Source of the DNA: an uncultured bacterium
GTDB taxonomy: Bacteria > Patescibacteriota > Minisyncoccia > Moranbacterales > UBA2206
Direction: 5' to 3'
Assembly: GCA_903937035.1 (NCBI GenBank)
Contig: CAIZXS010000005.1
Span: 62,746-126,745, forward strand
Length of the DNA: 64,000 nt
This document shows positions 23,494 to 64,000 of this stretch, piece after piece. The translations under genes were made by a program, and so were the position numbers. Position 1 is the first letter of the stretch, and every line of letters begins with the position of its first letter. The notes under the pieces were generated by a model. The model was not told where the DNA came from, searched no databases, and saw nothing but the letters and a program-made list of their open reading frames with translations.

Positions 23494-23523
23494 AACCATC
23501 CCAGGATTAGGGATGGTTTTTTG
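23494..23523 (+). terminator. Rho-independent terminator after rpsT
   Basis: aaccatccc-aggattag-ggatggtt hairpin followed by a T run. Confidence 0.6.
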
Positions 23524-23530
23524 TGTTTTA

Positions 23531-23679
23531 TGTCATCCTGAGCGTAGCGTAGTGGAGTCGAAGGATCTACCTTGCGCCATCTAGAGCCTGATTTATATTT
23601 GCAAAGCTTAGGGTGGTGACTAGCAGATCCTTCGACTGCATAAATTTCCTGGTGAAAATTTATTCCGCTCAGGATGACA
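23531..23679. repeat. Repeat family A, copy 1 (inverted-repeat element, ~149 bp)
   Basis: Starts tgtcatcctgagcgtagcgtagtggagtcgaaggatct and ends agatccttcgactgc...cgctcaggatgaca. The 14-bp termini are perfect reverse complements, and inner arms gtcgaaggatct/agatccttcgac are also complementary. Confidence 0.7.
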
Positions 23680-26979: not shown

Positions 26980-28785
26980 ATGAACTATATGAAAAAAATT
27001 GCTCTCGGTTTGATTTTAATGGCTTCTGTTTTTTTATCAAATAACGTTGAGGCGCGGACAAATGTCATGGACTGGTACCTTAAAAATTTTGAGTCAGAAA
27101 TTAAGGTCAATAAGGATTCAACACTTCTCGTTACGGAAAAAATCACCGCTGATTGTGGCAATGCCTCTGGTAAGCATGGAATTTTTCGGACCTTGCCGAC
27201 AGTTTTTCGAACGACAGATAAAACAATCGCAATGCCGATTGAGCTTCTCGGTATCACAGATTTTAATGGCAATAGTTTGCACTATTCCACGCAAACTGAT
27301 TATTCAAATAAAACAGTAACTTGGAAAATTGGTGATCCTAACCGAACGGTGACGGGTGAGAATAATTATCTCATAACGTATAAAGTTAAAAATGCCGTTC
27401 TTTTTGATAAATCCGATTTTGATGAATTATATTGGAATTTGAATGGTAATTTTTGGGATCTGGAAACCGACAGTTTCACTGGCAAAATAGTCCTTCCATC
27501 AGAAATCACAAAAAGCAACACTCAAGTTGATTATTATACTGGCAGCTTGAATAGTAAGGGAAAGGATGGGGCTAGCTATTCTTGGCTTACTAATAATATT
27601 TTACAGTTTAAATCCAATAAGACTTTGTTGGTTGGCGAAGGCATCACAGCCTCTATTGCGTTCCCCAAAAATATTATTATGCCGTATGTGCCAACTTTTT
27701 GGGAAAAGTATGCGTTATATTTATGGTTAATTATCCCGCTTGTAGCGTTTGCTATTTGTTTTAGTGTTTGGGATAGATATGGAAAAGATCCGGAAGGTAA
27801 AAAAACAATTATCGCTGAGTTTGATATTCCTGAGAAGCTTTCTCCTTTGGAGCTCGGAACACTTTTCACTAATGGAAAACTGAAGACGGAGTTTATATCT
27901 GCCTCTATCATTAACTTGGCAGTTAAAAAAGTAATTCAAATTGAACAGACGGAAGGACTAGATTCTCTCAATGTTGGTTTGGCGAAAGAGGGAATTTCGA
28001 AACTTTCCGATGGGCAAAAATCTTTTGCAGATAAAGCTTTGAATTTCTTTCATATTGGGGAAGATTTTCGCTTGAAAATTATCAATAGAGATTTGATTTC
28101 AGAACTGGCAAGTCCTGAAAAAAAGTTAATACAGGAAATGTTTGGTGCAAAGGATGAAATCATGCTTTCCGGACTCAAAAATGAATTTTACAAAAGCCTT
28201 CCTGAGATTAAAAAGGTGACGTTGGATAGTCTAGAAAAAAAGCAGTTGATTGAAAAAACCGGCCTGACTTTTCAGATGATTTTTCTGGTTGCCGGATTTA
28301 TTTTAGCCTTTTCAACCTTTATTTTTACATCCATCTCTCTTTCAATTTTGCCTGCCATGATTTTGACTACGATTATGGTTTTTATTTTTTCCTTTTTAAT
28401 GCCCAAGAGAACGCCTGCTGGAGCTGAGGTGTATTGGAAAACTAAGGGTTTTAAGCTTTATATGGAAACAGCCGAAAAATATCGCGAGCAGTTTAATGAA
28501 AGGGAAAATATTTTTGAAAAACTTTTGCCCTATGCCATTATGTTTGGCATGACGAAATTGTGGATCAAAAAAATGAAGGAAATTTATGGCGAAGACTATT
28601 TCAATGCCTATCACCCGATGTGGTTCGTAGGCGGCAGCATGGCAAACTTTGATGCCGACAGTTTTGCTTCGCGTGTGGACAGTCTTTCTTCGGCTATGGC
28701 TTCTAATGTTTCTTCTGGCTCAGGTGCTGGCGGCGGCGGAGGATCAGGTGGAGGCGGAGGCGGGGGAGGCGGGGGAGGATGGTAG
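26980..28785 (+). CDS. DUF2207-family membrane protein with C-terminal poly-glycine tail
   Basis: 601 aa. Signal peptide, large extracellular N-domain, TM helices near residues 240 and 440-480, C-terminus SGSGAGGGGGSGGGGGGGGGGGW, typical of DUF2207. Confidence 0.6.
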   Translation: MNYMKKIALGLILMASVFLSNNVEARTNVMDWYLKNFESEIKVNKDSTLLVTEKITADCGNASGKHGIFRTLPTVFRTTDKTIAMPIELLGITDFNGNSLHYSTQTDYSNKTVTWKIGDPNRTVTGENNYLITYKVKNAVLFDKSDFDELYWNLNGNFWDLETDSFTGKIVLPSEITKSNTQVDYYTGSLNSKGKDGASYSWLTNNILQFKSNKTLLVGEGITASIAFPKNIIMPYVPTFWEKYALYLWLIIPLVAFAICFSVWDRYGKDPEGKKTIIAEFDIPEKLSPLELGTLFTNGKLKTEFISASIINLAVKKVIQIEQTEGLDSLNVGLAKEGISKLSDGQKSFADKALNFFHIGEDFRLKIINRDLISELASPEKKLIQEMFGAKDEIMLSGLKNEFYKSLPEIKKVTLDSLEKKQLIEKTGLTFQMIFLVAGFILAFSTFIFTSISLSILPAMILTTIMVFIFSFLMPKRTPAGAEVYWKTKGFKLYMETAEKYREQFNERENIFEKLLPYAIMFGMTKLWIKKMKEIYGEDYFNAYHPMWFVGGSMANFDADSFASRVDSLSSAMASNVSSGSGAGGGGGSGGGGGGGGGGGW

Positions 28786-28791
28786 GAATTG

Positions 28792-28926
28792 TGTCATTCT
28801 GAGCGTAGCACAGCGGAGTCGAAGAATCTGCTTGCTATAATCCCAATTTTTACTATAAATCACTAAGTCAGTAATAATGGTCAGTAGGTCCTTCGGCTAC
28901 GTCTGAGTACAGATTTCGCTCAGGAT
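28792..28926. repeat. Repeat family A, copy 2 (3-prime end degenerate)
   Basis: tgtcattctgagcgtagcacagcggagtcgaagaatctg ... tcgctcaggat. It lacks the terminal gaca. Lies between the DUF2207 stop and the DUF1653 start. Confidence 0.6.
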
Positions 28927-29190: not shown

Positions 29191-29213
29191 TATAAAACAG
29201 ACAGCCCGCCAAA

Positions 29214-29385
29214 ATCCACCTCACCCTTTTACCTTCAAGCCGTTGAAGGTAAAATCTCCTTAGCAAGGAGAGGGGACGGAACGCAGAGATGTTGGGTGTA
29301 TTTATGGTGATTTTAGAATGGAAAGATGCTGAAGTAGGCCTTCTCCTTATCAAGGAGAAGGTGGTCGAAGACCGGATGAGGTGAG
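29214..29385. repeat. Repeat family B, copy 1 (extended, opposite orientation to copies 2 and 3)
   Basis: atccacctcaccc ... ctccttagcaaggagagg ... ggccttctccttatcaaggagaaggtggtcgaagaccggatgaggtg, the reverse complement of the B3 consensus plus extra hairpin accttcaagccgttgaaggt. Confidence 0.65.
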
Positions 29386-29386
29386 T

Positions 29387-30325
29387 TTACTTCTGACACC
29401 CCGCGCAGTAAAATACACTCCTTTGCGCCATCTTTTTACGCAAAACTAATCCACCGCATTTGGCAGGACAAGGCAATTTATCTCGACGATAAACTTTAAG
29501 CATTTCTTGAAAATGTCCCGGTGCGCCGTCTGAATCGCGATAATCACTGTCCGATGTTCCGCGCATTTTGATGGCGAGCTTTAGAATTTTTTTTGTTGCA
29601 AGAAAGATTTTTTTTCGTTCAACTTTTTCGAGACTTTCATTTTTGCGCTCCGGCAGAACGCCAGCAGTAAAAAGAATTTCACTGCGATAGATGTTGCCGA
29701 TGCCCGAGACGATGCTTTGGTCGAGAAGAAAAATGCCAATGAGCATTTTTGGTTTTGCATCCAATAGTGCGTTAAATTTAGCGAGAGTGAAATCGGTGCT
29801 CATAGCATCAATCCCAATCTTTTTTTCCGCTAAATATTTTTCGAGCGCTTTGGTTTCCAAGAGTCGCATCGTGGCAAATTTCCGCAAATCAGAAAATTCC
29901 AGAGTCCTATTCTTATTCAAATACCAAATGTGATGAATATATTGATTAACTTTGTCGTCGAAGAAACTCACCTCATCCGCCCTACAGGCACCTTCTCCTT
30001 GGTAAGGAGAGGGGCTTTTTGTATTTTGTTCCCTCTTCTTACTGAGGAGATGGTTAGGGTGAGGTGGATTTGACTTCACGAGCAAATGCCCAGTCATCCT
30101 CAGATGAATATGCAAAGACTTTCCGCCAGAAAGATTGAGAAATATATTTTTTCCCACTCGCTCAGCCAAAAGAATTTTTTTGTTTTTCATCTCACGCTTA
30201 AATTTTTCCAAAACCGTACCTTTAATGGCAGATGGAAAATCAGACCAGAATTTTGTAATGGTAGCGCCTTTAATTTTCTTATTCAAATCCGCCACAACTG
30301 TTTCAACCTCAGGTAGTTCGGGCAT
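29387..30325 (-). CDS. mutM: Formamidopyrimidine-DNA glycosylase (Fpg/MutM) carrying an in-frame ~34-aa insertion derived from repeat family B
   Basis: 312 aa. MPELPEVETV N-terminus (catalytic Pro2, Glu3), H2TH region and C-terminal zinc finger CPAKCGG...CAGCQK. Residues ~83-116 (VKSNPPHPNHLLSKKREQNTKSPSPYQGEGACRA) are encoded by the repeat B copy. Confidence 0.8.
   Translation of the reverse strand: MPELPEVETVVADLNKKIKGATITKFWSDFPSAIKGTVLEKFKREMKNKKILLAERVGKNIFLNLSGGKSLHIHLRMTGHLLVKSNPPHPNHLLSKKREQNTKSPSPYQGEGACRADEVSFFDDKVNQYIHHIWYLNKNRTLEFSDLRKFATMRLLETKALEKYLAEKKIGIDAMSTDFTLAKFNALLDAKPKMLIGIFLLDQSIVSGIGNIYRSEILFTAGVLPERKNESLEKVERKKIFLATKKILKLAIKMRGTSDSDYRDSDGAPGHFQEMLKVYRRDKLPCPAKCGGLVLRKKMAQRSVFYCAGCQK
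29968..30068. repeat. Repeat family B, copy 2 (inside the fpg coding sequence, in frame)
   Basis: cacctcatccgccctacaggcaccttctccttggtaaggagaggggc...ccctcttcttactgaggagatggttagggtgaggtgga, with terminal inverted repeats cacctca/tgaggtgg and two internal palindromes. Confidence 0.7.
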
Positions 30326-30329
30326 AAAT

Positions 30330-31094
30330 TTAGCTTAATTGATTATTCAACTCTGGCGATTTGCTTGGAATCATATGCCACATCGTCCTGTGGATGCTCA
30401 AAAGGCTTTCATAAATCTTCTGGCTTTCGATAATTAGTCCAAACTGTTCTTCGAAAGACATGATGCCAACTTTATTATATCCATAAAGATTGATGCTGAC
30501 TGTAATTTTGAAAAATTCTGAATTGACCGCCTTGAACCGGCGGAATTGTACAGTATTCTTTTTGGCAATTTCTTTGAATTTTTCGGTGTCTGGATGGAGA
30601 CTATTGACCCAGACCTTATTCTTTATTCGAATAGGGATGTAAATATCATCAACCCATTTGGCATCAAAATTTGAGAGCCATGTTTCTGAATACCAAGAGT
30701 ATGTCTCTTTGACCGAGCTATTGGCGATAGCCCTAAATACCTCCTTGATTCCTTCTTCCCCTTCAAAAAAGCGAATGATTGGCTTTTTATCAATCAAGTT
30801 GGTGATGGAAAGCAGTTGTGGCATTAGTTTATCGACTGCTTCCATTTTTTCTACCAGCGTATGTTTAATTTTCTTAGGATTTTCGGCGTAGTATATTGAC
30901 TTCCCTTTCTTTTTATAGTGGCTAACCAGCCCCTTCTTGCCCAGTGAGGTCAAAACTAAATAGACCGTGGTTCTTTTGACTCCTGATTTTCTCGATAAGC
31001 GTTCGACGCTGGTCTCTCCTAGTTCCAAAGCGGCCAAATAGACTTTGGCCTCGTTGGCGCTGAGATCTAGCTTTTCTAGTTCATTAAAAAGCAT
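30330..31094 (-). CDS. TrmB-family transcriptional regulator (paralog 1 of 3)
   Basis: 254 aa. N-terminal wHTH LDLSANEAKVYLAALELGETSVERLSRKSGVKRTTVYLVL typical of TrmB. C-terminal effector domain. Confidence 0.6.
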   Translation of the reverse strand: MLFNELEKLDLSANEAKVYLAALELGETSVERLSRKSGVKRTTVYLVLTSLGKKGLVSHYKKKGKSIYYAENPKKIKHTLVEKMEAVDKLMPQLLSITNLIDKKPIIRFFEGEEGIKEVFRAIANSSVKETYSWYSETWLSNFDAKWVDDIYIPIRIKNKVWVNSLHPDTEKFKEIAKKNTVQFRRFKAVNSEFFKITVSINLYGYNKVGIMSFEEQFGLIIESQKIYESLLSIHRTMWHMIPSKSPELNNQLS

Positions 31095-31308
31095 AATTTG
31101 ATTTTATTGTTTATTTTGTCATCAAAAATGACAACAAATATAGTCTAGCATAGAGGCTTAATTGAAGCAAGTATAGTGCTATAGGAAAAGAGTATATCCA
31201 TAATCTATGGACAATTTAACAATTTTCTAGTATACTACGCTGTTAGGATAAATTGTCCAAAGGATCCAGATAAAATCTTAGCCAAAATAATTATTAAGCC
31301 AAAAACCT

Positions 31309-31509
31309 ATGCAAATGATCTTGAACAGCGGAATGCGGATTGATGATCCTCCGGATATGTCGGAAAAAACCAGAAAATATCTTAATCAGTTCTGGCACTT
31401 TCCTTCCAAGGAGGATGTGATAAAAGAAAAAGATAAGCACTATAACTTTGAATGCAAGAGAGAATGGCAAAGAAGAGATGATCAGACTGAAAATGAAATT
31501 AATCCGTAG
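31309..31509 (+). CDS. Conserved small protein (MSEKTRKYLNQFWHFPSKED family), paralog 1
   Basis: 66 aa. 52 of 66 residues align with ORF 33704..33907, including identical MSEKTRKYLNQFW.FPSKE. Conserved upstream context taagcNaaaaaccNatg. Confidence 0.5.
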   Translation: MQMILNSGMRIDDPPDMSEKTRKYLNQFWHFPSKEDVIKEKDKHYNFECKREWQRRDDQTENEINP

Positions 31510-31958
31510 ATTCTAGTGGAAGATAGAAAGCACTTCTGTCTTCCCTAGAGTTTATCTGGGTCTAGATGGCTCGCAGTTACTTAAAAACAGAATAATTCGA
31601 CCAAGGCTCGGATTTGCATAGTGCGGATTCATTTGGGAGTTATTTTGGCTGAGAAAACATTATCGCCTGTATCGGTGGGATAGAAATGGAGCAGGGGGAA
31701 AATGGGAAACAGAGAGGATGTGAGTAGGATGAATAGTCCAGAGTATTCAGCTTACTGTAGTTATTGGGTTAATTCTAATAACTCTTATTCAAAGAAAAGT
31801 AATAATAAGGACGAAGAGCCATGGCACCTGAGGGGCTATGATAGGGATGACCCCTATACGCGTCACCTCAAGGGGGAGGATTAATAACAGGCTTGAGGCA
31901 ATCAAGTGAGAATCATCACAATTTATTCGTTCCATTTAATTAATATAAGGAGGTGGTC

Positions 31959-32549: not shown

Positions 32550-33296
32550 CTATTTTTTTGCCATCTTCCAAAGTAAATCAAAATAGGATAGATAGGATTT
32601 GCGAAAATCTTCGTTTTTTATTTCAATGCAAAACATATCTTCACCACTGCCTGTGCCATAGGAATTGAGGGTGATGGAATCGTGCCAGATGTCAAAAGAT
32701 GTCGGTGAGGAATAGCCTTCCGGCAAAAAGCGATATTCCGAATTGGCGCGTTTCACGAGCTTCGCTTCTTCGGAGCCGATATTGCCAAAAATCAGCCTTG
32801 TTTTAATATTTTTTTTCGTGCGGATGCGATTGCTTCTTTCAAATACGCCGGATTTCTGCATCAATTCTTTGAACCGCATTGCTGCGCCAGTGACAACCAG
32901 ATATTCAGAATTGATTGGCATTAAATCATCTTTTCGCATAATCAATTCGCGATAAGCTTTTGCGCCTTCATAGATCCTGATTTCTTGGCCTTTCTTCTGG
33001 CCGACCAATTTTGCATTGATTTCTTCCATCAAATTCTTAGCCACAACTTCTTGTTGCCTAATGTTATCCAAAATATTTTGCGGATTGGCGATGCGAAAAA
33101 CCAAGCGGTTATTTTTGGTGGTTTTTAGCACCATTTTTTTATTCTCGAGTCCATCCAGCGCGTCATAGGCAACTTGTCGATGCATTCCTAGTTTTTTGAT
33201 TAAGGGGCCAACCGTATTTTCGCCCAATTCTAAAAGCGCATTATAGATTTTAATCTCATTGGGTGTGAGTCCAAGTTGTTTTAGTTCGTTTTCCAT
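32550..33296 (-). CDS. TrmB-family transcriptional regulator (paralog 2 of 3)
   Basis: 248 aa. LGLTPNEIKIYNALLELGENTVGPLIKKLGMHRQVAYDAL wHTH. C-terminus ends ..YFDLLWKMAKK like paralog 3. Confidence 0.6.
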   Translation of the reverse strand: MENELKQLGLTPNEIKIYNALLELGENTVGPLIKKLGMHRQVAYDALDGLENKKMVLKTTKNNRLVFRIANPQNILDNIRQQEVVAKNLMEEINAKLVGQKKGQEIRIYEGAKAYRELIMRKDDLMPINSEYLVVTGAAMRFKELMQKSGVFERSNRIRTKKNIKTRLIFGNIGSEEAKLVKRANSEYRFLPEGYSSPTSFDIWHDSITLNSYGTGSGEDMFCIEIKNEDFRKSYLSYFDLLWKMAKK

Positions 33297-33310
33297 AGAT
33301 TTTAATTAAA

Positions 33311-33414
33311 TCCACCTCATCCGGCCTACGGCCACCTTCTCCTTGGTAAGGAGAAGGGCTCTTTTTGCATTCGTTTCCTCTCCTTACTAAGGAGAGGGCT
33401 AGGGTGAGGTGGAT
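33311..33414. repeat. Repeat family B, copy 3 (intergenic)
   Basis: tccacctcatccggcctacggccaccttctccttggtaaggagaagggc...cctctccttactaaggagagggctagggtgaggtgga. Terminal inverted repeats plus two internal perfect palindromes (ccttctcctt-ggt-aaggagaagg and cctctcctta-ct-aaggagagg). Confidence 0.7.
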
Positions 33415-33703
33415 TCTAAAAAAGTCTTATTTAATTATCATCACCCCAAAACTGACCATATTTCAAAAATCCCTTATTCTGGCTTAATTATACATCAGTT
33501 TAAAACTTATGTCAACATCGTCGCAATAATACTGTTGACAATAATCGATTTATCTGGTAAGCTTTTGAGTCAAGTTGAGAGAGGGCTCTCGAGGAGACAG
33601 GGTAATTTAACCTTATTGTTGAGTCAAGATATTCAAAATAAGCCTTAAAAAGGGCATATGTGAATAGAGAAGCTTTACAATGCTAATCTTTAAGCTAAAA
33701 ACC

Positions 33704-33907
33704 ATGAAAATGCTCTTAAATAATGGAAGTGTAATCAATAATGCTCCAATTATGTCAGAAAAGACCAGAAAATATCTTAATCAGTTTTGGCGCTTTCCTT
33801 CCAAAGAAGAAACTGAAAAAGAGAAGGAGAAATATTATATCGTTGAATGTAGTAAAAAGTCGCAAACAACAGATGAATTTGTAGTTGAGCATGATATCTG
33901 CATATAG
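33704..33907 (+). CDS. Conserved small protein (MSEKTRKYLNQFWRFPSKEE family), paralog 2
   Basis: Aligned start MKMLLNNG matches MQMILNSG of paralog 1. The ORF track starts 8 codons earlier at 33680. Confidence 0.5.
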   Translation: MKMLLNNGSVINNAPIMSEKTRKYLNQFWRFPSKEETEKEKEKYYIVECSKKSQTTDEFVVEHDICI

Positions 33908-34008
33908 GTTCCAGTCGAAGACAGAAAAAGCTTCTGTCTTCCCTGGAGTTTATCTAAATTCTTAGGTAGCTCGTAGTTTTTGAACATTTAAAATTGGAGG
34001 AATGAAGA

Positions 34009-52535: not shown

Positions 52536-52581
52536 AAAAGTATTAAGGATTTCTATTTATATAAAAAATAACCCCCCCTAT

Positions 52582-52720
52582 TGTCATTCTGAGCGTAGCG
52601 CAGCGAAGTCGAAGAATCTGCTATGAGTTATTCTAATCCTTGCTATATTATAGAAAGCTTATGGTAGTGGATGGCAGATCCTTCGACTGCGTCCGAGTAC
52701 GGACTTCGCTCAGGATGACA
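52582..52720. repeat. Repeat family A, copy 3
   Basis: tgtcattctgagcgtagcgcagcgaagtcgaagaatctg ... gcagatccttcgactgcgtccgagtacggacttcgctcaggatgaca. Preceded by a C7 homopolymer. Confidence 0.7.
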
Positions 52721-55261: not shown

Positions 55262-58200
55262 ATGCCGCCGCTAAAACAAAAAAATCAAAACACAATATCT
55301 TTTCAAAAGACCTCCTTCGTGTTGATTTTCTTGGCAGTTGTTTTCCTCGTTGGCGTGAAAAATTCTCAGGCGGTAATTTCTGAGAAGATTAATTATCAAG
55401 GAAAATTGACTGATTCGAGTAACGTAACTGTAGCTGACGGAGCATATGACATTGTTTTCAATCTTTACACGACTGCTGGTGGTGGTTCTCCAATTTGGAC
55501 AGAGTCTTGGACAAACTCAGCCCTTTTCACAAATTCTGGAACAACTTTCACAAATAATGGTTGCGCGGCAGGAGTGGATCGCATGGCCTATACTGGAGAC
55601 ACTAACGAGGGAACACTTTCAGCGGGACAATATCTTTGGAATACAACCAAAAAGGAATCAGCCGTAATTGAGTCTGTGAGCACTTCCGGTTCTGGCGGGT
55701 ATATTTGTTTTTATGATCCCTATTCAACTTGGGCAAGTAGTGATGCTATTTCTAACCGCATCTATGTCCGCAGTGGAATTTTTTCCACTATGCTTGGAAG
55801 CGTGCAAAGTCTCAGTGCAATTGATTTCAATCAAACGCTCTATCTAGGAGTGACAATCGGAGGTGATCCAGAAATGCAACCAAGAAAAGTGATTGGTTCT
55901 GCTCCATCAGCTTTTACAGCCAAAACATTGAATAATAATGGCACTGCAACAATAGCCACCAATGCCGGGGCGACAATTAGCATTGGCAATACAACTGGAG
56001 CAGCTACTGTGCTTTCCGGCGGAGCATCTTCTTGGGCTAACACGAGTGGAAACCTGACTGTTTCTACGGTGACTTCCGGAACGCTCGCTGTGACATCAGC
56101 TGGAGCACTTAATTTGTCTGCCGCTGCCGCTTCGACTGCAACGCTCGCCAATGTTGCTGATGCATTTAATTTTGATAGCAACACTCTTTCTGTTGATGCT
56201 CTGAATAATCGAATCGGAATTGGGACGGCTGCTCCAACCGCATTTTTGGACATAGCAGCATCCACAACTGGCGCTGCTAGCTTGCGTTTGCAAACAGGAG
56301 TTGCTCCGACAACTCCGAATATCGGTGATATGTGGTTTAATGGGACTAATCTATATTTCAGAAAAGATGGTACAACATCGCAAGACTTGTTGGCTTCAAG
56401 TGGTAGCGGACCTTGGACTGACGGCACTGGCGTTACATATATAACTGACACAGCAGAGGACTTGGCAATCGGCGCAGCAACATTGGTTGCGCCTTTTTCC
56501 GTTGATGTTTCCCTGAATACTGCTCGCATCGGTACTGGAGCGACTAATAATGGAATTCTAAACATGTATGCCTCAGATGGTGATACTGGTTCGCTTGCTT
56601 ATACCACCGACGATGCTTGGACTTTCACGGGTGGTAATGTGGGAATTGGCACTACTCAACCATGGAGTGCTCTTCATGTCACTAGTAGTGTATTGTGGGG
56701 TTCAAATGTTTATCTCGAAGCCACCAATGCTGGTGCGGATTTTCCAGTTTGGACATTTAAGAAATCCAGAGCAGGCGCTTCGGTGAATGCTTGGGATTCA
56801 TTGGGGGAGATGAAATTTGCTGGAGTCAACAGCACGGGAAGTTCAGATTCTGATTTTGGAACTATTATTGGTATTGCGGAAGATCCAACTTCGGGTTCAG
56901 AAGATGGAAATTTTATGTTTTCTGTTGTCAGAGGTGGTGCAATGATTGAACAAGCAAGATTTAGTGGGCCGGAGGGAGTTAATTTTAATTACCAGAACTC
57001 TCCCAATGTTGATTTTACGGTTTCAGGAGACACAATCAGTCAACTCATATTCGCTGATGCCAGCACAGACACAATTGGGATTGGTGTTGCTGCGCCAAAA
57101 GCTTTTCTGTCACTAGCCGGTGCTACGGCTGGAAAATCTTCCCTGAATATTGCTACTGGCACTGCTCCAACCGGCGGTAATCTCTATGATGGTGATATGT
57201 GGTATGAAACTGGGCATCTCTATTTCCGCGATACGACAACGAAAGACCTCTTAGCTGGAGGAGGAATGGCAATTGGAGGAACAATCTCAAATAGTCCCAA
57301 TGATACGTCAATACTATTCGTGAACGGTTCAGTTCTCGCCCAAGATACCAATTTTACTTGGAACACAACTAATGATGAATTGGGAATTGGAGTGGCTCCG
57401 ACATATAGAGTTGATGTTGCAACGGCGGTGGCAAGTGATCGTGGAGTTAATATTTCCAATACTGCTGCAACAGGAACAAACTATGGTATCTTTTCTTCCG
57501 TCACCGGCGCAGCGACTGCTAATTATGGTGGAAATTTTGCATCCAGTGGCGCTGTTACCAATTATGGCGTGAATATTGCTGGCATGACAGGGTCGGCTAC
57601 AGCTTTGAATAACTATGGCGTATATGTGGGAACCATTACGAGCACCAGCTCAACCAATGCGGTTAATTATGGAATATATGTCAATGGAATAACTGGAGTT
57701 ACAGCCGAGGATAATGCTACAAACGTTGACTTATACCTAGGAAATATCACTGGCTCAACCACAACTTCAAGTAATATTGGACTCAAGATGGGAACCATCA
57801 CAAGCACCTCTGGAACCGGATCGAACTACGGAATTCAATTAGGTGCCATTTCTGGCGCAACAAATAATTCCTATGGCATTTCACTTAATACCTTGACCGG
57901 AGGCGTTCTGACCAACACTCAAATTGCGACTGGCCAGATCACTGTAACAGGCGCAGTGACTGGAAGCTATGCTCTTAATCTGGGTGGGTTGACGGGAACA
58001 GCTAACGCAGCGACTAACGCTGGAATCAATCTTGGTGCAATAAATTCCGCCGGAACAACGAGCACAAACTATGGAATTCGCTTGAGCACAATGACCGGAG
58101 GAACAACCGCAAATTATCAAATTGCGACTGGCGCGCTCACAAACACTGGTACGACCAACATTCAGCTCGATTTAGGCGGACTTTCTGGTTCTGTTGCATC

Positions 58201-61200
58201 TTCGAATAATTATGGAATTAGACTTGGCGCAATCAGCTCAGCCGGAACCACTTCGAATAATTATGGAATTAGTCTTGGAACATTGACTGGTGGCACGACT
58301 TCCAACACGCAAATTGCCACAGGCGCAATCACAATTACCTCTGTTTCTAACTACGGATTAAATATCGGCGGACTTTCTGGCTCTGTTGCTTCTTCTAATA
58401 ATTATGGCATCAATGTTGGCGCAATCAGTTCTGCTGGAGCAACTTCCAATAATTATGGAATGAATATCACATCAATCACTGGTGGTGTAACGGCTAACTA
58501 TGGTTTAAATGTCGGCGCAATCACAACCACTGGTGCGACCAATTCTTATGGTTTGAATGTGGCTGCAATGACTGGCACGGGAGCATCTAGTTATGGATTA
58601 AATGTGATGGCGGCGACTGCCACGGGAACAAACGTGTTTGGTATGCAAATTAATGGAGCGACTGGTGGCTCAGCTAATAGTTATGGCTTAAACGTGACGG
58701 TGCCGATCAATGCTACTGGGCACAAGGCAGGCATTGAAATTGGAGCAGCTTCCACAGCAAGTGGAAATTGGGCGCTTTATTCTGGTGATACAAACGGATC
58801 ATATCTAGCGGGAAATTTAGGCCTTGGAACAGCAGTGACCACAACTTCATTTCTCAGTCTGGGTGCCCATACCACTGCAAAATCAAGTCTAAATATTCCA
58901 TCTTCTGGTGGCGCTGTTCTTTCTGCTCCTGTTATTGGGGATATGTGGTTTAATGGAACCAGTCTATATTTTAGGAAAGATGGTTCAACTTCGAGCGACC
59001 TTCTTGCTGCTGGGGCTGGAATGTCGATTGGTGGAAGTATTAGTAGCTCAACTTCTGGTTCTATTCTCTATGCTAATAGTTCCAACCAAATGGCTCAGGA
59101 TAATGCTAACTTTTTTTGGGATGCAACGAACAAGCGCCTAGGAATTGGAACAACTGCTCCATCACAAGCGTTGACAGTTAATGGAAGCATCAGGTTGGCT
59201 GCTGGCGTGACAAATAGCTTAGTCTTTCAAGATGGAACGACAATGACGACGGCTGCTGCCACCTCCACTGGCTATACGAGTACAACTGATTTGAACTTTG
59301 CGGCGGACAGTGATACTAATGGTTCTGGTACGATGTTTTTTGCTACTAATGGCCTGGAAAGAATACGTGTCACAAATGCTGGACTAGTTGGTGTCGGCAC
59401 AGCATCAGGAACCGCGCAATTAGCAGTCAATACAACTGGTACAAACAATCTTTTGCAATTGCAAAAAGCTGGACTGGATAAGTTTGTAGTGGATAATAAG
59501 GGTGGCGTGACAGTCAACGGAACATCAGCAAATAACGTCAAGACAACTACTGGAACAACCAATGTGACAGATTTTTCCTTTACTGGCTCAACCTTTACTA
59601 ATGTCACTTCGCAAAATGATGAAGTTGATATTGATGCCGGATCGGTGGTAACAACTTTCTCATCAGCCGCGGCTAATACTGCAGTCAATGCTGGAGCGGG
59701 ATCACATAGTATCGTGCGTGATGATGGCAGAGTAATTGTTGTTCATGGCGGTGGCGCAGCGACTGGATCATCGTGGGACGGATCATCTGCGACGATGACT
59801 TCAGTCACCGTTGCTTCGGCTGCTTCAGTTGGAGCAGGCGCAATCTCTCTGAAGCGTCCTAACGGAAGGTATCTTCTGGTGCACGGTAATGGTTCGGCTG
59901 GACTTTCTTCTGTTTATGACCCTTGGAATATTACAGCAGCCGCTGCTGGCCCAGCAGTTTGTGGAGGTGGGGCAACAACAACGGGAACTAATGCTTTTAT
60001 GCGACCAGATGGAAAATATGTCATTATGTGCGGAGGTTTGACAGCTTGGGGTGTCTATGATCCTTCGGCTGCTGTCGCAGCTGGATACACTGCAGGCACA
60101 GTAGTCGCTTCAGCTTTTGGCGCTGGCGCTTTTGCGATCCAAAGAGATGATGGAACGTTTTTAGTTTTTCGCGGAGGCAGCACAACCACACATTGGATTT
60201 ATAATCCTTTTGCTGGTGCGACTGGAACCTGGACAATAAACCCAATCACAACTAATATGCCAACAATTTCTACTGGAGCTTTTGCTATCCGTAGGAATGA
60301 TGGAAAATATTTGATTGTGGGAGGAGCGATTAATACTTCAACTATCTATAACCCAACGACAACGACTTCTAATTCTGGTGCGGGAGCTTTTGAGCTCATT
60401 AATGGTGGTGTAGCAGCAGCCGGTTTCGGGCCAATCACCACTGCTCTTGCAGACGCTGCTCAAGTAGTGCGTCGACAAGATGGGAAATATCTGATGGTGC
60501 ATGGTGGCGCTTCAACGCTAACTGATATCATTGATCCATCTGTCACGACCAATCAAATGTTTTTAGCTGGAACAGCCCTTAATAATGCCATGGGTGCTGG
60601 CGGACATTTTGTTCCGAGGCCAGACGGAAAATATGCCATCATTCGCGGAGGCGCTGCAACCCCAGTCGATACTTATGATATGGGCTTTGTGATGGGAGGG
60701 AATGGATCAGGATCGCAACTTTCGAGTTATGAAACGGAATGTATGACAGCGACCTCACTTAATCAATCTTCCACACTCAACTGGACAGCTAATATGGAAG
60801 GAACGCTTATTTTTCAGGTAAAAACAGGAACAGGTTCTTGTTCTGGAGCTTATAAGAACATTCTAAATAGTGGGGATTTAATTCGTCCTGTGGCAGGAGA
60901 TAATCGCGTTCAAGTTAAGGTTTTTTTCAAGCGCCCATTTTTTATCGGTTACGACCAGGAGTGGTCTTTGTGGCGTGGTCTTAGCCAGCCACGTTATCGT
61001 GCGAAAGTGGCCGATCCAACACTATATGACATTAAGGTTGATAATTCCTCTCAGCTACATCGCTCCCTGTTTGACTTTGGTATTGGAACAAATAATGCCA
61101 CTACCGATCCATCTGGACCAGTATCTTCGAATTTGAATGTGACTATGGATGGTAAATTACAGTTAGCAGCTGGTGTCGGAATGCAAAATCTTGCCCCAAC

Positions 61201-64000
61201 TACTGTTCCCTCTCCTACTCTTGGACTTGCTTATGGTGGCGCCTATGCAACACAGTCAGCTCTCACGACCGGTGCCTTAGAGGGCACTATCGTGATGAGA
61301 CGTCCAGATGGAACCTTTTTGGTTATTGCGGGTAATGCAGCGACAGCTAATGCGCAAGTATATGATCAAAATACAGGTGTATTTACCGCTAATGCTAATG
61401 GGGTGTATGGTGCTACTTGTAGTGGTAATTGTGTACCAACAACATACGCCAAAAGAGGAGCTCTTGCTTTCAAGCGTCCTGATGGAAAATATTTAGTGGT
61501 ACTTGGTGGTGCTTCTACTACGACAAACATATATGATCCAGTCGCAAGCACATTCACTGCTGGGCCAGCAGTTACTGCTAATGTTGCTCGTGGATCGCAA
61601 GTAATTCCACTACCTAATGGTCGGGTGCTTATTATTCATGGAAACACAACTGCAACAACATCTATTTATGACCCAATTCAAAATATAATGCTTATTGGTC
61701 CATCGTCGCCAGTGAATGTTGGTCCAGGATCATTAGTGATTCCTAATGTTAATGGTACTTGGCTTCTTATTCCTGGTCTTCCGGATACTGGTACGGACAC
61801 AGCAATTACCTGTGGAACGCCCGTTACAACATCAACCATCTTTGATTCATATTCTATGCTATTTTCTCCAACAGCTTCAGCGCCAACGATTGTTACGGGA
61901 ACTGGTCCGGGAGCGCTTGCTTTACAGCGTTCTGATGGGTTATGGGTTATCACAAAAGGTGGTGCCGTAGTGACGACATGCGCTACCACGGTACTTACTA
62001 CTCATATATACAATCCAACCACTGGAAAGATTGTTGCTGGTCCAAGTGTAATAACCCAAGCTCCTGGGCAAGGTAGTCATGTAATACAGCGCCCCGATGG
62101 AAATAGAATAATTGTAAATGGTGGAGGAACAGCGACATCGCAGGTATATATAGAAAAAGATATTGCAGCAACACATGCTTTTGGTGAACAAATTGGTCTT
62201 TTCGTAGCCGGCGGACCAGCTCCTGCTGCCATTGGATCAGGATCAGTTTCTTTTCAGAGGGATGATGGAAAGCAAGTAACGATTTCTGGCGGAACAACCA
62301 CTACTGCCATATCTGTTGGTACTGTCAATACGGGCGTGCAAATGCTTGATTTGGGCTGGGCGGCGACAGGGGCATATCGGACAGAACAAATCAATGTTTC
62401 TGATCTCAGCACCGACTCAACACTTAACTGGAAAGCGACACCAAATATGAACAACATTTCAGCTGAAGTGCGCACAGCCACAAGTCAGCTTGGACTTCAA
62501 TTGGCCACTTCTCGCGATATCACAACATCCGGTGGTCTCATTAATCCTGGCGGATCAGAAACTTGGATTCAGATTCAATTTAATTTCAAGCGAATATTCC
62601 CAAATAATCCTGGAATTTGGAGTGATGTGTGGTGGAATGGTGGCTCGACAATGGCATTTAATTTGCGTACTATTACTAATCCGACTCTCAGTGAATTCAA
62701 GGTAAGTAAGGATGTCGATTTGGTTAACTTAAAATCAGACGGTTTGTCGATGTTTCGGGTTGGAACTAATGGTAGCATCTATACTTCTGCGACTGGAGTG
62801 ATTAATTCTGGTGGCGCCGACTTGGCTGAAAATTATACTTCAAATGATGCGTTGGAAAAAGGCGAAATTGTGGCGATTGATCCATCTGATAATCATAATG
62901 TTAAACGTTCTGCGTTGCCATATCAAAATGATCTTTTGGGAGTGGTTTCGACTGCTCCGGGTTTTGTGGCTGGCTCATATACCAAGGATTCTCATCCAAT
63001 TGCGCTGGTTGGACGCGTGCCGGTCAAGGTTTCTTCCGAAAATGGAATGATTCGCGAAGGTGATCGCATTACATCAGCTTCAATTCCTGGATTTGGTATG
63101 CGCGCGACATTCAGTGGGCGAGTAATTGGAACTGCGCTTGAATCAATGGATTCGGTTAATCTGGAAACTTGTCCAGCTGGTGGATATATCATGCCCAATG
63201 CAAAATGTGGTGAGATTATGGTTTTTGTTAATCTGGTGGATTATTCTGGAATGTCAGTGGACACATTGATGGCTGAGTCGAATGATGACACTGAGTCTGA
63301 AACAGAAACAGTTGATCAAAGTTCGCCTTTTGCTCAATTTGCAACGCAAGGAAAAATCCTAAATTTCTTGAAGAAAATGCGAGCAACTCAAACTAATTAC
63401 CGAGGTAGCGATATTTTGACCAGCAACGTGAGTGCAATTGGTCAAGTCGTTAGCCCGCTTATTGTGACAGACACTTTGATTGCCAAAAATATCAAAGCGG
63501 AAAATATTGAAGGGTTGCAATTTATCCAAACCGGAATCACTGACGCACAAAATGGCGTCTCAACCAACGCCACGGAAGTCAAAAACTTGGGACAACAATT
63601 GATTGACCTGCAAACTATGATGAAAGCGTTGACTGACAAATCCAATGGTGTAGATGCTGACGCGGTCAAAGAGATGGCAGTTAGCTATGGCTTGGTGGAG
63701 AGTGGACCGGCAGAATTCAAAGGACAGGCAATATTTAAGGCGATTGCAGAGTTTGTTGACAAGGTAATTTTCAGAAACAATGTTGAATTTGCTGGTCAAG
63801 TGATCTTTAATGAGGATTCAGCCGGATATGCCATTGTGAATAAAGGTGAGAATAGCGTGAAAGTAGAATTTGCCAAGGAATATGCCAATGTGCCAATCAT
63901 CAATGCCAGCCTTTCCGTGCAAGACATTAAAGATGAGGAATTGCGCAGTGCGACAGAAGATTTGATTTTGGCAACAGATGTTAAATATTTAATCACGAAT
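55262..64000 (+). CDS. Giant secreted/surface protein (>2900 aa, C-terminus off window) with NYGI-type beta-helix-like repeats, recurrent IGDMWFNGTxLYFRKDG modules and >=14 Kelch-like repeats
   Basis: Manual translation from ATG 55262 (in-frame TAA 6 nt upstream) stays open to the window end. N-terminal TM/signal ISFQKTSFVLIFLAVVFLVGVKNSQA. Repeats such as GAISSAGTTSNNYGIRLG. Kelch-like units of the form R-x-DGKYL-V-x-GG ... IYDP. Conserved (N/K)xLGIGTxAP..L.V motifs. Confidence 0.8.
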   Translation, partial: MPPLKQKNQNTISFQKTSFVLIFLAVVFLVGVKNSQAVISEKINYQGKLTDSSNVTVADGAYDIVFNLYTTAGGGSPIWTESWTNSALFTNSGTTFTNNGCAAGVDRMAYTGDTNEGTLSAGQYLWNTTKKESAVIESVSTSGSGGYICFYDPYSTWASSDAISNRIYVRSGIFSTMLGSVQSLSAIDFNQTLYLGVTIGGDPEMQPRKVIGSAPSAFTAKTLNNNGTATIATNAGATISIGNTTGAATVLSGGASSWANTSGNLTVSTVTSGTLAVTSAGALNLSAAAASTATLANVADAFNFDSNTLSVDALNNRIGIGTAAPTAFLDIAASTTGAASLRLQTGVAPTTPNIGDMWFNGTNLYFRKDGTTSQDLLASSGSGPWTDGTGVTYITDTAEDLAIGAATLVAPFSVDVSLNTARIGTGATNNGILNMYASDGDTGSLAYTTDDAWTFTGGNVGIGTTQPWSALHVTSSVLWGSNVYLEATNAGADFPVWTFKKSRAGASVNAWDSLGEMKFAGVNSTGSSDSDFGTIIGIAEDPTSGSEDGNFMFSVVRGGAMIEQARFSGPEGVNFNYQNSPNVDFTVSGDTISQLIFADASTDTIGIGVAAPKAFLSLAGATAGKSSLNIATGTAPTGGNLYDGDMWYETGHLYFRDTTTKDLLAGGGMAIGGTISNSPNDTSILFVNGSVLAQDTNFTWNTTNDELGIGVAPTYRVDVATAVASDRGVNISNTAATGTNYGIFSSVTGAATANYGGNFASSGAVTNYGVNIAGMTGSATALNNYGVYVGTITSTSSTNAVNYGIYVNGITGVTAEDNATNVDLYLGNITGSTTTSSNIGLKMGTITSTSGTGSNYGIQLGAISGATNNSYGISLNTLTGGVLTNTQIATGQITVTGAVTGSYALNLGGLTGTANAATNAGINLGAINSAGTTSTNYGIRLSTMTGGTTANYQIATGALTNTGTTNIQLDLGGLSGSVASSNNYGIRLGAISSAGTTSNNYGISLGTLTGGTTSNTQIATGAITITSVSNYGLNIGGLSGSVASSNNYGINVGAISSAGATSNNYGMNITSITGGVTANYGLNVGAITTTGATNSYGLNVAAMTGTGASSYGLNVMAATATGTNVFGMQINGATGGSANSYGLNVTVPINATGHKAGIEIGAASTASGNWALYSGDTNGSYLAGNLGLGTAVTTTSFLSLGAHTTAKSSLNIPSSGGAVLSAPVIGDMWFNGTSLYFRKDGSTSSDLLAAGAGMSIGGSISSSTSGSILYANSSNQMAQDNANFFWDATNKRLGIGTTAPSQALTVNGSIRLAAGVTNSLVFQDGTTMTTAAATSTGYTSTTDLNFAADSDTNGSGTMFFATNGLERIRVTNAGLVGVGTASGTAQLAVNTTGTNNLLQLQKAGLDKFVVDNKGGVTVNGTSANNVKTTTGTTNVTDFSFTGSTFTNVTSQNDEVDIDAGSVVTTFSSAAANTAVNAGAGSHSIVRDDGRVIVVHGGGAATGSSWDGSSATMTSVTVASAASVGAGAISLKRPNGRYLLVHGNGSAGLSSVYDPWNITAAAAGPAVCGGGATTTGTNAFMRPDGKYVIMCGGLTAWGVYDPSAAVAAGYTAGTVVASAFGAGAFAIQRDDGTFLVFRGGSTTTHWIYNPFAGATGTWTINPITTNMPTISTGAFAIRRNDGKYLIVGGAINTSTIYNPTTTTSNSGAGAFELINGGVAAAGFGPITTALADAAQVVRRQDGKYLMVHGGASTLTDIIDPSVTTNQMFLAGTALNNAMGAGGHFVPRPDGKYAIIRGGAATPVDTYDMGFVMGGNGSGSQLSSYETECMTATSLNQSSTLNWTANMEGTLIFQVKTGTGSCSGAYKNILNSGDLIRPVAGDNRVQVKVFFKRPFFIGYDQEWSLWRGLSQPRYRAKVADPTLYDIKVDNSSQLHRSLFDFGIGTNNATTDPSGPVSSNLNVTMDGKLQLAAGVGMQNLAPTTVPSPTLGLAYGGAYATQSALTTGALEGTIVMRRPDGTFLVIAGNAATANAQVYDQNTGVFTANANGVYGATCSGNCVPTTYAKRGALAFKRPDGKYLVVLGGASTTTNIYDPVASTFTAGPAVTANVARGSQVIPLPNGRVLIIHGNTTATTSIYDPIQNIMLIGPSSPVNVGPGSLVIPNVNGTWLLIPGLPDTGTDTAITCGTPVTTSTIFDSYSMLFSPTASAPTIVTGTGPGALALQRSDGLWVITKGGAVVTTCATTVLTTHIYNPTTGKIVAGPSVITQAPGQGSHVIQRPDGNRIIVNGGGTATSQVYIEKDIAATHAFGEQIGLFVAGGPAPAAIGSGSVSFQRDDGKQVTISGGTTTTAISVGTVNTGVQMLDLGWAATGAYRTEQINVSDLSTDSTLNWKATPNMNNISAEVRTATSQLGLQLATSRDITTSGGLINPGGSETWIQIQFNFKRIFPNNPGIWSDVWWNGGSTMAFNLRTITNPTLSEFKVSKDVDLVNLKSDGLSMFRVGTNGSIYTSATGVINSGGADLAENYTSNDALEKGEIVAIDPSDNHNVKRSALPYQNDLLGVVSTAPGFVAGSYTKDSHPIALVGRVPVKVSSENGMIREGDRITSASIPGFGMRATFSGRVIGTALESMDSVNLETCPAGGYIMPNAKCGEIMVFVNLVDYSGMSVDTLMAESNDDTESETETVDQSSPFAQFATQGKILNFLKKMRATQTNYRGSDILTSNVSAIGQVVSPLIVTDTLIAKNIKAENIEGLQFIQTGITDAQNGVSTNATEVKNLGQQLIDLQTMMKALTDKSNGVDADAVKEMAVSYGLVESGPAEFKGQAIFKAIAEFVDKVIFRNNVEFAGQVIFNEDSAGYAIVNKGENSVKVEFAKEYANVPIINASLSVQDIKDEELRSATEDLILATDVKYLITN

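Follow-up and report, generated by a model that had tools for sequence, protein, structure and literature searches.

A palindromic triplex-motif repeat carried in frame by the fpg gene of an uncultured Moranbacterales bacterium

The locus described here raises the question of how a palindromic DNA repeat can lie inside the gene of a DNA repair enzyme while the reading frame stays open, and to which kind of repeat it belongs. The gene is fpg (mutM), which encodes formamidopyrimidine-DNA glycosylase (Fpg) and lies in a stretch of 64,000 nt from an uncultured bacterium of the Moranbacterales (GenBank assembly GCA_903937035.1, contig CAIZXS010000005.1, forward-strand positions 62,746 to 126,745), a member of the Candidate Phyla Radiation (CPR, Patescibacteria). 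This whole stretch is referred to as the window. A first-pass annotation, made from the letters of the window, had noticed the repeat and likened it to the Rickettsia palindromic elements (RPEs). Altogether, we consider it quite probable that a repeat built of triplex motifs replaced a loop of Fpg, is read through in frame, is tolerated by the protein and was spread by recombination.

The interrupted fpg gene and its repeat

The 312-aa open reading frame (ORF) matches the Pfam families Fapy_DNA_glyco (7e-26, residues 1-153) and H2TH (6e-20, residues 170-258), and the closest named proteins among its 6956 homologs are formamidopyrimidine-DNA glycosylases of Candidatus Moranbacteria / Moraniibacteriota, which belong to the CPR. 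In a comparison of 35 relatives, the residues P2/E3, K59 and M77 as well as the four zinc-finger cysteines were invariant. Together with the H2TH match, this confirms the first-pass statement that the catalytic, H2TH and zinc-finger parts are intact. The solved Fpg proteins of E. coli, Neisseria and others align to the window protein in two blocks, residues 1-83/88 and 135-312, and nothing in them is aligned opposite the insert, so that the absence of such a segment from E. coli Fpg had been described correctly. The palindromic copy inside the ORF, in the following copy A, is real and has a length of 108 bp. The positions given for it at first, 29968-30068, deviate by at most 4 nt per end from those determined here (Table 1), and the peptide quoted for the insert is present, its element-encoded part being N86-V119. 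Since the identical 312-aa protein was found on at least 15 contigs of independent ENA, JGI, NCBI and Logan assemblies, an assembly artefact or a frameshift is very unlikely, and neither a frameshift nor a stop was seen in the insert.

For the description of the repeat family, 33 distinct copies were aligned, taken from the window as well as from 39 metagenome contigs that a family-specific pattern had retrieved. The element comprises about 105-110 bp and is modular. It opens with the terminus AAATCCACCTCACCC and a TAA/TAG linker, in place of which an optional hairpin module of 24-28 nt can stand, followed by hairpin 1 (CCCTCTCCTT-NNN-AAGGAGAGGG), a spacer that varies between 10 and 60 nt, hairpin 2 (CCTTCTCCTT-NNN-AAGGAGAAGG), a mini-hairpin such as GGCC-GTA-GGCC and the terminus GGATGAGGTGGATTT. 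The stems hardly differ among 19 short copies, in contrast to the loops and the spacer. The mini-hairpin showed compensatory changes (GGCC/GGCC, GGTC/GACC, GCCC/GGGC), with double-sided changes at two pairs, in 3 and 4 of the 19 sequences. All full copies combine a unit with a TTA/TAA loop and a unit with a different second loop. Three copies of the repeat are present in the window (Table 1), in which the 14-nt terminus AATCCACCTCAYCC occurs six times (three pairs) compared to 0.65 expected occurrences, and the inner hairpin motif five times compared to 0.02. The search of Rfam with the element gave no family and only sub-threshold microRNA look-alikes. Peptide searches for other hosts were of low power; they gave two proteins for the doubled consensus and three weak matches in the exhaustive search of representatives.

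In a shuffle test, the segment of copy A folded with -56 kcal/mol (z = -5.9), far better than its shuffles. The hairpin of unit 1 is degenerate, with three stem mismatches compared to the family consensus CCCTCTCCTT-AGT-AAGGAGAGGG, and copy A carries 4 of the 7 broken stem cells in the alignment of the short copies. Compared to these, its fold was the weakest (-45.6 kcal/mol compared to -50 to -64 kcal/mol). The broken stems and the weak fold indicate an old or decaying copy. A weaker mRNA structure of in-gene copies in general was rejected, since it holds true for the window copy and not for the other in-gene copies. The spacer of copy A is homologous to spacers of intergenic copies and is therefore not a remnant of the native Fpg loop.

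Relation to intrastrand triplex motifs

A G/C-rich intrastrand triplex motif, TM_ECO, formerly boxC or PIT, was described by Holder et al. 2015 (NAR 43:10126, PMC4666352) with the pattern CCCTCNCCC-N3-6-GGGNGAGGG-N3-GGGNGAGGG and counted 3610 times in 262 genomes of Proteobacteria. In E. coli MG1655 it is always intergenic and shows no tie to transposases or other mobile-element genes, and inverted pairs of a TTA-loop type A unit and a type B unit are present at 5 E. coli loci (PMC4666352). Judged by its sequence, the window element is the CPR version of these boxC / TM_ECO / PIT repeats and not peculiar to this lineage. On the G-rich strand, a half of the element reads CCCTCTCCTT-loop-AAGGAGAGGG-TTA-GGGTGAGGTGG, compared to CCCTCTCCC-loop-GGGAGAGGG-TTA-GGGTGAGGG in E. 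coli. Each block is identical to TM_ECO in 8 of 9 positions, and the ninth triad differs on all three blocks at once (C-G·G to T-A·T). The block order of unit 1 of copy A is that of the E. coli type A unit, GGGAGAGGG-TTA-GGGTGAGGG. Further features common to both are the inverted pairs of a TTA-loop unit with a unit having a different second loop, the conserved stems and variable loops, the lack of a known associated transposase, and a link to local sequence variability and rearrangement.

The differences concern the setting and the details of the units. While the E. coli motif is always intergenic, about one copy in five lies in a gene here, in frame. One G·G-C triad is changed to T·A-T and, in the second unit, another one to A·A-T, in keeping with the low GC content of the genome. 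In unit 2, the second loop comprises 12 nt with a mini-hairpin compared to 3 nt in E. coli, optional extra modules occur, and CPR/Patescibacteria do not appear in the description of the 2015 survey.

In the proposed architecture, the pyrimidine block CCCTCTCCTT of each half would pair with the purine block AAGGAGAGGG, and the second G-rich block GGGTGAGGTGG, which follows after a short loop, is suited by its sequence to join the purine strand and complete a purine-motif triple helix as its third strand. With the two units facing each other, the third blocks would come to resemble terminal inverted repeats. The element may form a triplex of this type, as far as its base order can tell. Such a motif is defined by a C-rich stem, a complementary G-rich stem and a second G-rich block in succession, which obey purine-motif triads (G·G-C, A·A-T, T·A-T) with one mismatch at the most. 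When these triads were scored, the intergenic units of the window showed 8-9 contiguous canonical triads and the E. coli type A unit 9 of 9, compared to 7/10 (unit 1) and 8/10 (unit 2) in copy A. The loops of unit 1, with 3 nt and 3-4 nt (TTA, TAA, GCTA), lie inside the 1-6 nt of the ITxF search definition.

A third strand is also indicated by covariation. The G/A difference between the termini (GGGTGAGG vs GGATGAGG) mirrors the difference between the hairpins (GGAGAGGG vs GGAGAAGG), and in unit 2 of copy A, the A at the third position of the third block varies together with the A-T pair in the hairpin. A scan of species-representative genomes with the termini only (CCACCTCAYCC-N65-95-GGRTGAGGTG) yielded at least 119 loci, compared to an estimate of about 34 expected by chance. 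Among the matches listed, to which the following counts refer, CYTCTCC / GGAGARG hairpins were also present inside the termini in at least 51 loci, with hosts among the Alphaproteobacteria, Bacteroidales, Gemmatimonadales, Ignavibacteria, Saccharibacteria, Gracilibacteria, Uhrbacteria and Moraniibacteriota. For at least 78 half-elements the states of third strand, purine and pyrimidine were determined as G/G/C (58), A/A/T (7), G/G with an absent or different pyrimidine partner (12 more) and A/A/C (1). No discordant combination of third strand and purine was found among them, a count that treats related copies as independent and is therefore not a probability. Given this covariation of the ends with the hairpins inside, what look like terminal inverted repeats are best explained as third strands, each belonging to one of two triplex units in inverted orientation.

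The limit of this count weighs against the triplex assignment, as do the following points. The literal TM_ECO regular expression is not matched by the element, although the triad rule is satisfied. The control with shuffled third strands was only modestly significant for single units (2-11%). The second loop of unit 2, with 12 nt and its own 4-bp hairpin, exceeds the published limit of 1-6 nt. Finally, for E. coli TM_ECO, Holder et al. obtained a stable triplex only with single-stranded oligonucleotides in vitro and saw no footprint in vivo (PMC4666352).

A BLAST comparison with E. coli genomes gave non-significant matches of 37-41 nt only (E = 1-4), one of which shows a TM pair on inspection. 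In the unannotated flgG-flgH spacer of E. coli R32_14_1F (L170, 80-185), a palindromic TM_ECO pair with a two-unit layout like that of the window element was observed: CCCTCACCC-CGG-CCCTCTCCC-ACA-GGGAGAGGG ... CCCTCTCCC-TCGA-GGGAGAGGG-CTA-GGGTGAGGG. A separate observation concerns the loci L013-L126 of the genome scan (e.g. L022, L042, L080; L030, L047, L119), in which CCACCTCAYCC...GGRTGAGGTG(G) ends also bracket two other palindromic families. One interior (...CTGAGGAGCG...GTCTCGAAGG...) was present in at least 29 loci among the matches listed, mostly of Rhodospirillales and Reyranella, the other (...CCGAGCGCAGCGAGGGATCT...) in at least 6 Gemmatimonadales loci among them.

The termini also bring to mind a conventional MITE (a miniature transposable element with inverted repeats), which would have arisen from an insertion sequence by deletion, would be moved in trans by a transposase recognising the 14-15-nt terminal inverted repeats and would lie in frame by chance. 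The clear terminal inverted repeats (AAATCCACCTCAYCC ... GGRTGAGGTGGATTT), the size of about 100-180 bp, the many dispersed copies and the modular variants would agree with this origin, and in-frame fusions of MITE ORFs with host genes are known (PMC10969869). Like ERIC, pneumococcal BOX, QMITE1 and the Anabaena MITEs (PMC10969869), the element is small and non-autonomous, has inverted termini and extends or fuses host frames. However, those MITEs have transposase-type ends and usually target duplications, and neither was seen in the copies and loci examined. In the 33 flanked copies no repeated flank of 2 nt or more was found; a duplication of 1 nt is possible, since the ends are A...T. In about 45 loci, no terminus pair enclosed a transposase-sized segment as expected for an autonomous partner, and distant pairs turned out to be two separate short copies. 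Furthermore, covariation of the termini with internal hairpins is not predicted for a transposase-binding end, and the E. coli relatives show no association with transposases or mobile elements (PMC4666352). A MITE origin is accordingly regarded as improbable. The two orthologous 'empty' sites are not clean: inside fpg the element has taken the place of the native loop, and 3' of fpg there is additional terminator sequence.

The missing target duplication would be compatible with a REPIN, in which two inverted repetitive extragenic palindromic (REP) sequences form a single-stranded hairpin that is moved by a RAYT (Y1/HUH) transposase. Also in agreement are the two inverted units forming one long hairpin, the invariant stems with variable loops and compensatory changes, the high copy number, and a GTAG tetranucleotide in the mini-hairpin of many copies. 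The GTAG is variable, though (GAAG, GGAG, ATAG, AGAG and AAAG occur as well), and stands in the loop of the mini-hairpin instead of at the head of the palindrome, where it is found in GTAG/CGTC-tagged REPs (PMC3733652); a conserved GTAG or CGTC head is absent from the element. REPs are moreover described as extragenic, the three-block covariation is not predicted by the REP model, and no RAYT was evident in the loci examined, although no genome-wide search for one was made. Taken together, a REPIN is quite improbable, and the inverted pair of triplex-motif units is preferred.

Replacement and exchange of the Fpg loop

The closest element-free ortholog, P0009 (L004, 291 aa), contains a native loop of about 14 residues, QETRSKKQTKGNTN, encoded by 42 purine-rich nucleotides. 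All repeat-bearing (TM+) alleles of the close group are without this native loop and have the same junctions. The native loop was thus replaced by the element, with a net gain of 21 aa compared to P0009. The earlier statement that about 34 residues were added in an open frame is therefore correct as to the frame and the encoded length, whereas a simple addition did not take place. According to the proposed mechanism, one copy would have landed in, and replaced, a hypervariable turn between two beta strands of the N-terminal domain. As the element has a length that is a multiple of three and one stop-free hydrophilic frame (Pro/Gly/Ser/charged), the ribosome would read through it, and Fpg would gain a flexible loop of about 34 residues and stay functional.

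In a comparison with the loop masked, the TM+ Fpg proteins did not form a clade. P0005 (TM+) is 95% identical to the element-free (TM-) P0017, and P0002 (TM+) 93% identical to P0011 (TM-). On the DNA level, L154 (P0005) and L166 (P0017) are identical in 200 of 200 positions at the 5' end, while the identity amounts to 76% left and 71% right of the loop and to 88-89% again further downstream. The loop flanks of L154 match other TM+ alleles instead, and L167 and L168 show the same behaviour. P0002 and P0017 originate from the same sample, and the genome with the TM- P0011 has a copy of the element in FemAB, on the contig that also encodes P0011. The identity tracts and the shared junctions point to one TM+ loop allele that diverged strains have exchanged through homologous recombination over short tracts; in the proposed course of events, this is how the repeat-bearing loop would have moved within the Moranbacteria group. 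A repeated independent insertion among the close relatives was rejected by the analyses of informative sites and segment identity.

In more distant CPR Fpg proteins, related elements were found in the same loop with different junctions (P0015, P0031 on L169, P0032/35, P0063, P0064, P0100 and P0113). The expectation that the insert is confined to one lineage therefore failed, since distant CPR Fpg proteins (58-75% identity) contain homologous segments in this loop as well. Such segments in distant orthologs had been named beforehand as a sign of an ancestral domain. They do exist, but the conclusion does not follow from them: about 85 of the 101 CPR Fpg proteins compared are without the segment and have short, mutually homologous native loops, the junctions differ, and the DNA is an intergenic repeat, which altogether indicates repeated colonisation. 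In these other lineages, related elements would have entered the same Fpg loop independently. A point against loop tolerance as the sole cause is the near-coincident right junction in the 62%-identical Fpg of L169, which could indicate a target-site preference.

Other repeat-like peptides were also found in the Fpg loop of CPR bacteria, namely PAYAKAPAGRQ, LPALKLRQA, LPTGRQ, NPPAGGQ, EILNSKSETNYK, FQFPIFNFQSISNDQ, VKRETRNVKR and RNASRSDAGG (proteins P0007/8/11, P0012, P0014, P0034, P0036, P0042/59, P0056/73, P0068 and P0085). The DNA of two of them comprises small hairpins, CCTGCC..GGCAGG (L167) and CCTGCCTACGCTAAAGCTCTGACAGG (L168). The Fpg loop is a permissive, hypervariable and repeatedly colonised site across the CPR. 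As a side observation, the contig of P0032 (JGI 3300075153) which belongs to a distant CPR lineage, contains an RVT_1 reverse-transcriptase gene of 329 aa whose end overlaps the first 30 nt of the TM+ fpg.

The consequence for the protein was assessed with an AlphaFold2 model of the window Fpg based on 35 homologs. The ordered parts superpose on the Fpg/MutM proteins of Lactococcus and Geobacillus with a target TM-score of 0.74-0.80. Residues 91-127 showed a predicted local distance difference test score (pLDDT) below 50 and no regular structure, and are flanked by strands 79-85 and 130-136; when placed on the model, the insert thus appears as an excursion between two beta strands. The mean pLDDT of 74 is modest overall and weighs against a detailed reading of the model. 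Strand 79-85 begins just past the conserved M77, which we take to be the equivalent of the helix-inserting (DNA-wedging) Met73 of E. coli Fpg. The insert would accordingly occupy the distal turn of this beta hairpin, opposite the end that bears M77, and would presumably lie at the surface, away from the DNA.

The selection on the two parts of the gene is clearly different. In the comparison of TM+ alleles, the ratio of nonsynonymous to synonymous substitution rates (dN/dS) of the codons outside the insert was 0.03-0.08 at a synonymous divergence (dS) of 1.0-2.1, compared to a dN/dS of 0.4-1.4 and a dS of 0.11-0.27 in the insert. The host gene is under strong purifying selection, whereas the insert peptide is nearly neutral and the insert DNA much less diverged than its host. 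The insert peptide is not selected as a protein; only the frame and the absence of stops are maintained. On the other side, the low dS of the insert may also mean a recent spread, conversion from other copies or selection at the DNA level.

These values also bear on the idea that the insert is a selected Fpg domain, ancestral in the CPR and repeatedly lost, with the intergenic look-alikes being derived or coincidental. The homologous peptides in the same loop (58-75% identity; P0015, P0031, P0032 and P0035) and the frame preserved in all of them would be in line with it. However, most CPR Fpg proteins are without the segment, as described above, the junctions vary by lineage, the same DNA is abundant between genes and within unrelated genes, the dN/dS of the insert is far from that of the host gene, and the model shows no structure for it. 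The selected ancestral domain is largely refuted, and we regard it as the most improbable of the explanations considered.

A further explanation would be that the insert is untranslated, either because the gene is a recent pseudogene or because the element is removed from the transcript, with the open frame being incidental. Indeed, the length of the canonical element can be divided by three and one of its frames has no stop, so that an open frame after insertion needs no selection; 14 of 28 intergenic copies likewise have a core whose length is a multiple of three, and the mRNA hairpin is very stable. In contrast, the flanking codons are under strong purifying selection in TM+ alleles at synonymous saturation. 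All indels within the insert are in frame, with -3 nt in the window, -9 nt in L137, +21 nt in L154 (an optional hairpin module) and another +21 nt in L167, where a 21-nt hairpin (CCTGCC-GGTA-GGCAGG) is nested. The core lengths of the TM+ alleles are 93, 99, 102 and 123 nt, and no stop was present in six alleles. That all later indels are in frame argues for translation and not for excision, and the FemAB and IleRS copies show a like pattern. An untranslated insert is therefore very improbable. The insert is predicted, from these alleles, to be translated by read-through, and the enzyme probably retains its activity.

In-frame copies in other genes and the surroundings of fpg

For an intragenic census, all copies in the examined loci were profiled and then checked for long ORFs spanning them. 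Compared to about 40 intergenic copies of the same DNA family in the fetched loci, about 9-10 of about 50 full copies sampled were intragenic, from three orthologous sites. With the divergent relatives included, at least 9 copies besides copy A lie in frame within genes. In the close Moranbacteria family, in-frame copies were present in Fpg (window, L006/L148, L137, L154 and L167, with a half-copy in L162), in FemAB-family proteins (L089, L149 and L161, the latter with a second half-unit near the N terminus) and in an IleRS of 989 aa (L131). Divergent in-frame relatives were found in an IleRS fragment (L026), in a UPF0489 protein of Gracilibacteria (L125) and in a Saccharibacteria UvrC (L069), where the element lies between GVYFF and LYIGKA. 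Pfam confirmed the host proteins, and both FemAB and IleRS comprise two distinct insertion sites.

The intragenic copies of the close Moranbacteria family all use one strand and one frame, NPPHPNPLLSKERG...SPSPYQGEGGRRPDEV, while the divergent relatives partly use other frames. The other frames of the element are closed by TAA or GTAG loops or encode hydrophobic runs (IHLTLTLSLVRRG..., ...LLLTKEKVAVGRMRWI), and these frames were seen only in short ORFs between genes. The core length, with a mode of 102 nt, was divisible by three in all six in-gene copies compared to half of the 28 intergenic ones mentioned above. Stop-to-stop ORFs in L153, L156 and L164 were not counted as intragenic, since the element lies only upstream of the likely start codon; a 149-aa ORF over an antisense copy in L155 was discarded as it looked spurious, and the ORF spanning the copy in L061, from a GC-rich proteobacterium, looks like an artefact of the non-coding strand. 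As an observation of its own, the mini-motif NPPAGG(R/D), encoded by a CCNCCNGCNGG-type palindrome, was seen in frame in a ComEC-like ORF (L156), in UvrC (L069) and in the Fpg loop of P0034, and may represent another family of in-frame hairpins.

Among known systems, the behaviour of the element resembles that of the RPEs most closely. According to PMC10969869, which summarises Ogata et al. 2000 and 2002, RPEs are palindromes of about 100-150 bp which lie in frame in unrelated housekeeping genes and between genes and encode a conserved peptide that the host protein seems to accommodate in its fold and function. The element described here likewise combines an in-frame palindrome with a conserved peptide (NPPHPNPLLSKERG..SPSPYQGEGGRRPDEV), both occur in small-genome bacteria, and the Fpg model suggests that the insertion is compatible with the host fold. 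The first-pass idea of a selfish palindrome tolerated as a loop is thus supported by the in-frame copies in other genes, the disordered stretch of the model and the purifying selection on the host gene. RPEs belong to Alphaproteobacteria and the present hosts to the CPR, and a sequence relationship is not expected; the likeness is one of behaviour, and the element is not filed as an RPE. Furthermore, RPEs are not described as triplex motifs, whereas the spread of an allele by recombination is documented here. The finding is not categorically new. It combines RPE-like in-frame palindromes with boxC/TM repeats in a new host group and in the setting of coding sequences.

In-frame selfish palindromes have hitherto been treated as essentially a Rickettsia curiosity, and the 2024 MITE review (PMC10969869) only speculates on similar protein remodelling elsewhere; no publication linking in-frame palindromic elements to CPR bacteria was found in the literature searched. 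The boxC / TM_ECO repeats were known as strictly intergenic, without a known function or mode of spread (PMC4666352). Here, a triplex-motif pair is predicted to be read as protein in a repair enzyme of essential type and likewise in IleRS, FemAB and UvrC of CPR bacteria, and the triplex-motif superfamily is extended, with three-way covariation, to very distant phyla. This provides a concrete source of CPR-specific loop insertions and a warning for annotation, as Pro/Gly-rich 'PSP..GEG' segments in CPR proteins are derived from repeats. TM+ and TM- alleles that are otherwise nearly identical (200/200 nt upstream) represent a natural experiment, and the matched pair P0005/P0017 is suited to testing the cost of such inserts.

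A wider reading, which we put forward as doubtful, is that paired triplex-motif repeats would be transposase-free selfish DNA that colonises coding loops of CPR genes at high frequency and spreads as loop alleles among diverged strains and species by homologous recombination over short tracts, with the triplex-prone structure being conserved and provoking breaks or stalls that drive its copying. If this selfish-DNA reading were true, the repeats would be a major source of those protein insertions, confined to single lineages, that are typical of CPR proteomes, and also a natural system for testing intrastrand triplex formation in vivo. The importance would rise if the triplex drives the spread, or if the inserts prove to be a general source of CPR protein loops.

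Table 1. Position of fpg, of the parts of copy A and of the other repeat copies in the window.
Feature	Position	Strand	Basis or remark
Coding sequence of fpg (mutM), 312 aa, with repeat copy A lying in frame within it	29387..30325	minus	ORF list, Pfam, homologs
Repeat copy A, palindromic pair of triplex-motif units, in frame in fpg	29964..30071	minus	repeat search, terminus and hairpin scans, nhmmer score 96 against family profile
Translated part of copy A, N86-V119, NPPHPNHLLSKKREQNTKSPSPYQGEGACRADEV	29969..30070	minus	model pLDDT; no counterpart in solved Fpg
Copy A, unit 1, TTA loop and third block	30054..30071	minus	plus strand TTA-GGGTGAGGTGGATTT; coding-strand terminus AAATCCACCTCACCC-TAA
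Copy A, unit 1, hairpin	30031..30053	minus	plus strand CCCTCTTCTT-ACT-GAGGAGATGG
Copy A, central spacer	30015..30030	minus	family alignment; variable, 10-15 to ~60 nt
Copy A, unit 2, hairpin, coding strand CCCCTCTCCTT-ACC-AAGGAGAAGG	29991..30014	minus	8/10 canonical triads
Copy A, mini-hairpin in second loop of unit 2, coding strand GCCTGTAGGGC	29979..29989	minus	compensatory changes in family
Copy A, unit 2, third block and terminus, coding strand GGATGAGGTGAGTTT	29964..29978	minus	terminus scan
Repeat copy B, canonical, 108 nt, intergenic	33308..33415	minus	repeat search, terminus scan, family profile
Repeat copy C, 177-nt variant with extra 28-nt hairpin module and long spacer	29212..29388	plus	repeat search, terminus scan, family profile

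The two other copies of the window lie close to fpg. Copy C stands directly 3' of it, its terminus overlapping the TAA stop codon (29387-29389). The site of copy C is empty in L004, where fpg and the DUF1653 gene are 8 nt apart, while L137 has a repeat copy at the same place. The junction of fpg and DUF1653 is an insertion hot spot. At the spot of copy C, 3' of the fpg stop, a different palindromic element (GTCATTCCCGCGAAGGCGGGAATCC ... GGATTCCCGCCTTCGCGGGAATGAC) was observed in L006 (3943-4176). Copy B, with 8-9 canonical triads per unit, is located upstream of a TrmB-family gene on the minus strand (32550-33296), at a distance of 12 nt from its start codon.

This TrmB-family gene is the second of two paralogs on the minus strand, the other one being located at 30330-31094, in a segmental duplication of the window (regions 30330-31557 and 32550-33955), and copy B stands just upstream of this second paralog. 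After each paralog comes one of two related segments, about 255 nt in length (31302-31557 and 33697-33955, 73-84% identical) and comprising a small ORF and a hairpin. A second palindromic family of about 135 nt, TGTCATTCTGAGCGTAGCGCAGCGRAGTCGAAGAATC ... GATCCTTCGRCTRCGTCYGAGTACRGAYTTCGCTCAGGAT, has intergenic copies at 23520-23650, 28781-28926 and 52571-52716, one of which lies just upstream of the DUF1653 gene beside fpg. Finally, three tandem 192-nt repeats and several dispersed repeats of 25-40 nt (GGAGCTTTTGCTATCC..GATGGAAAATAT) were observed at 57978-58485 and 59984-62277, which probably reflect repeated domains of a large protein.

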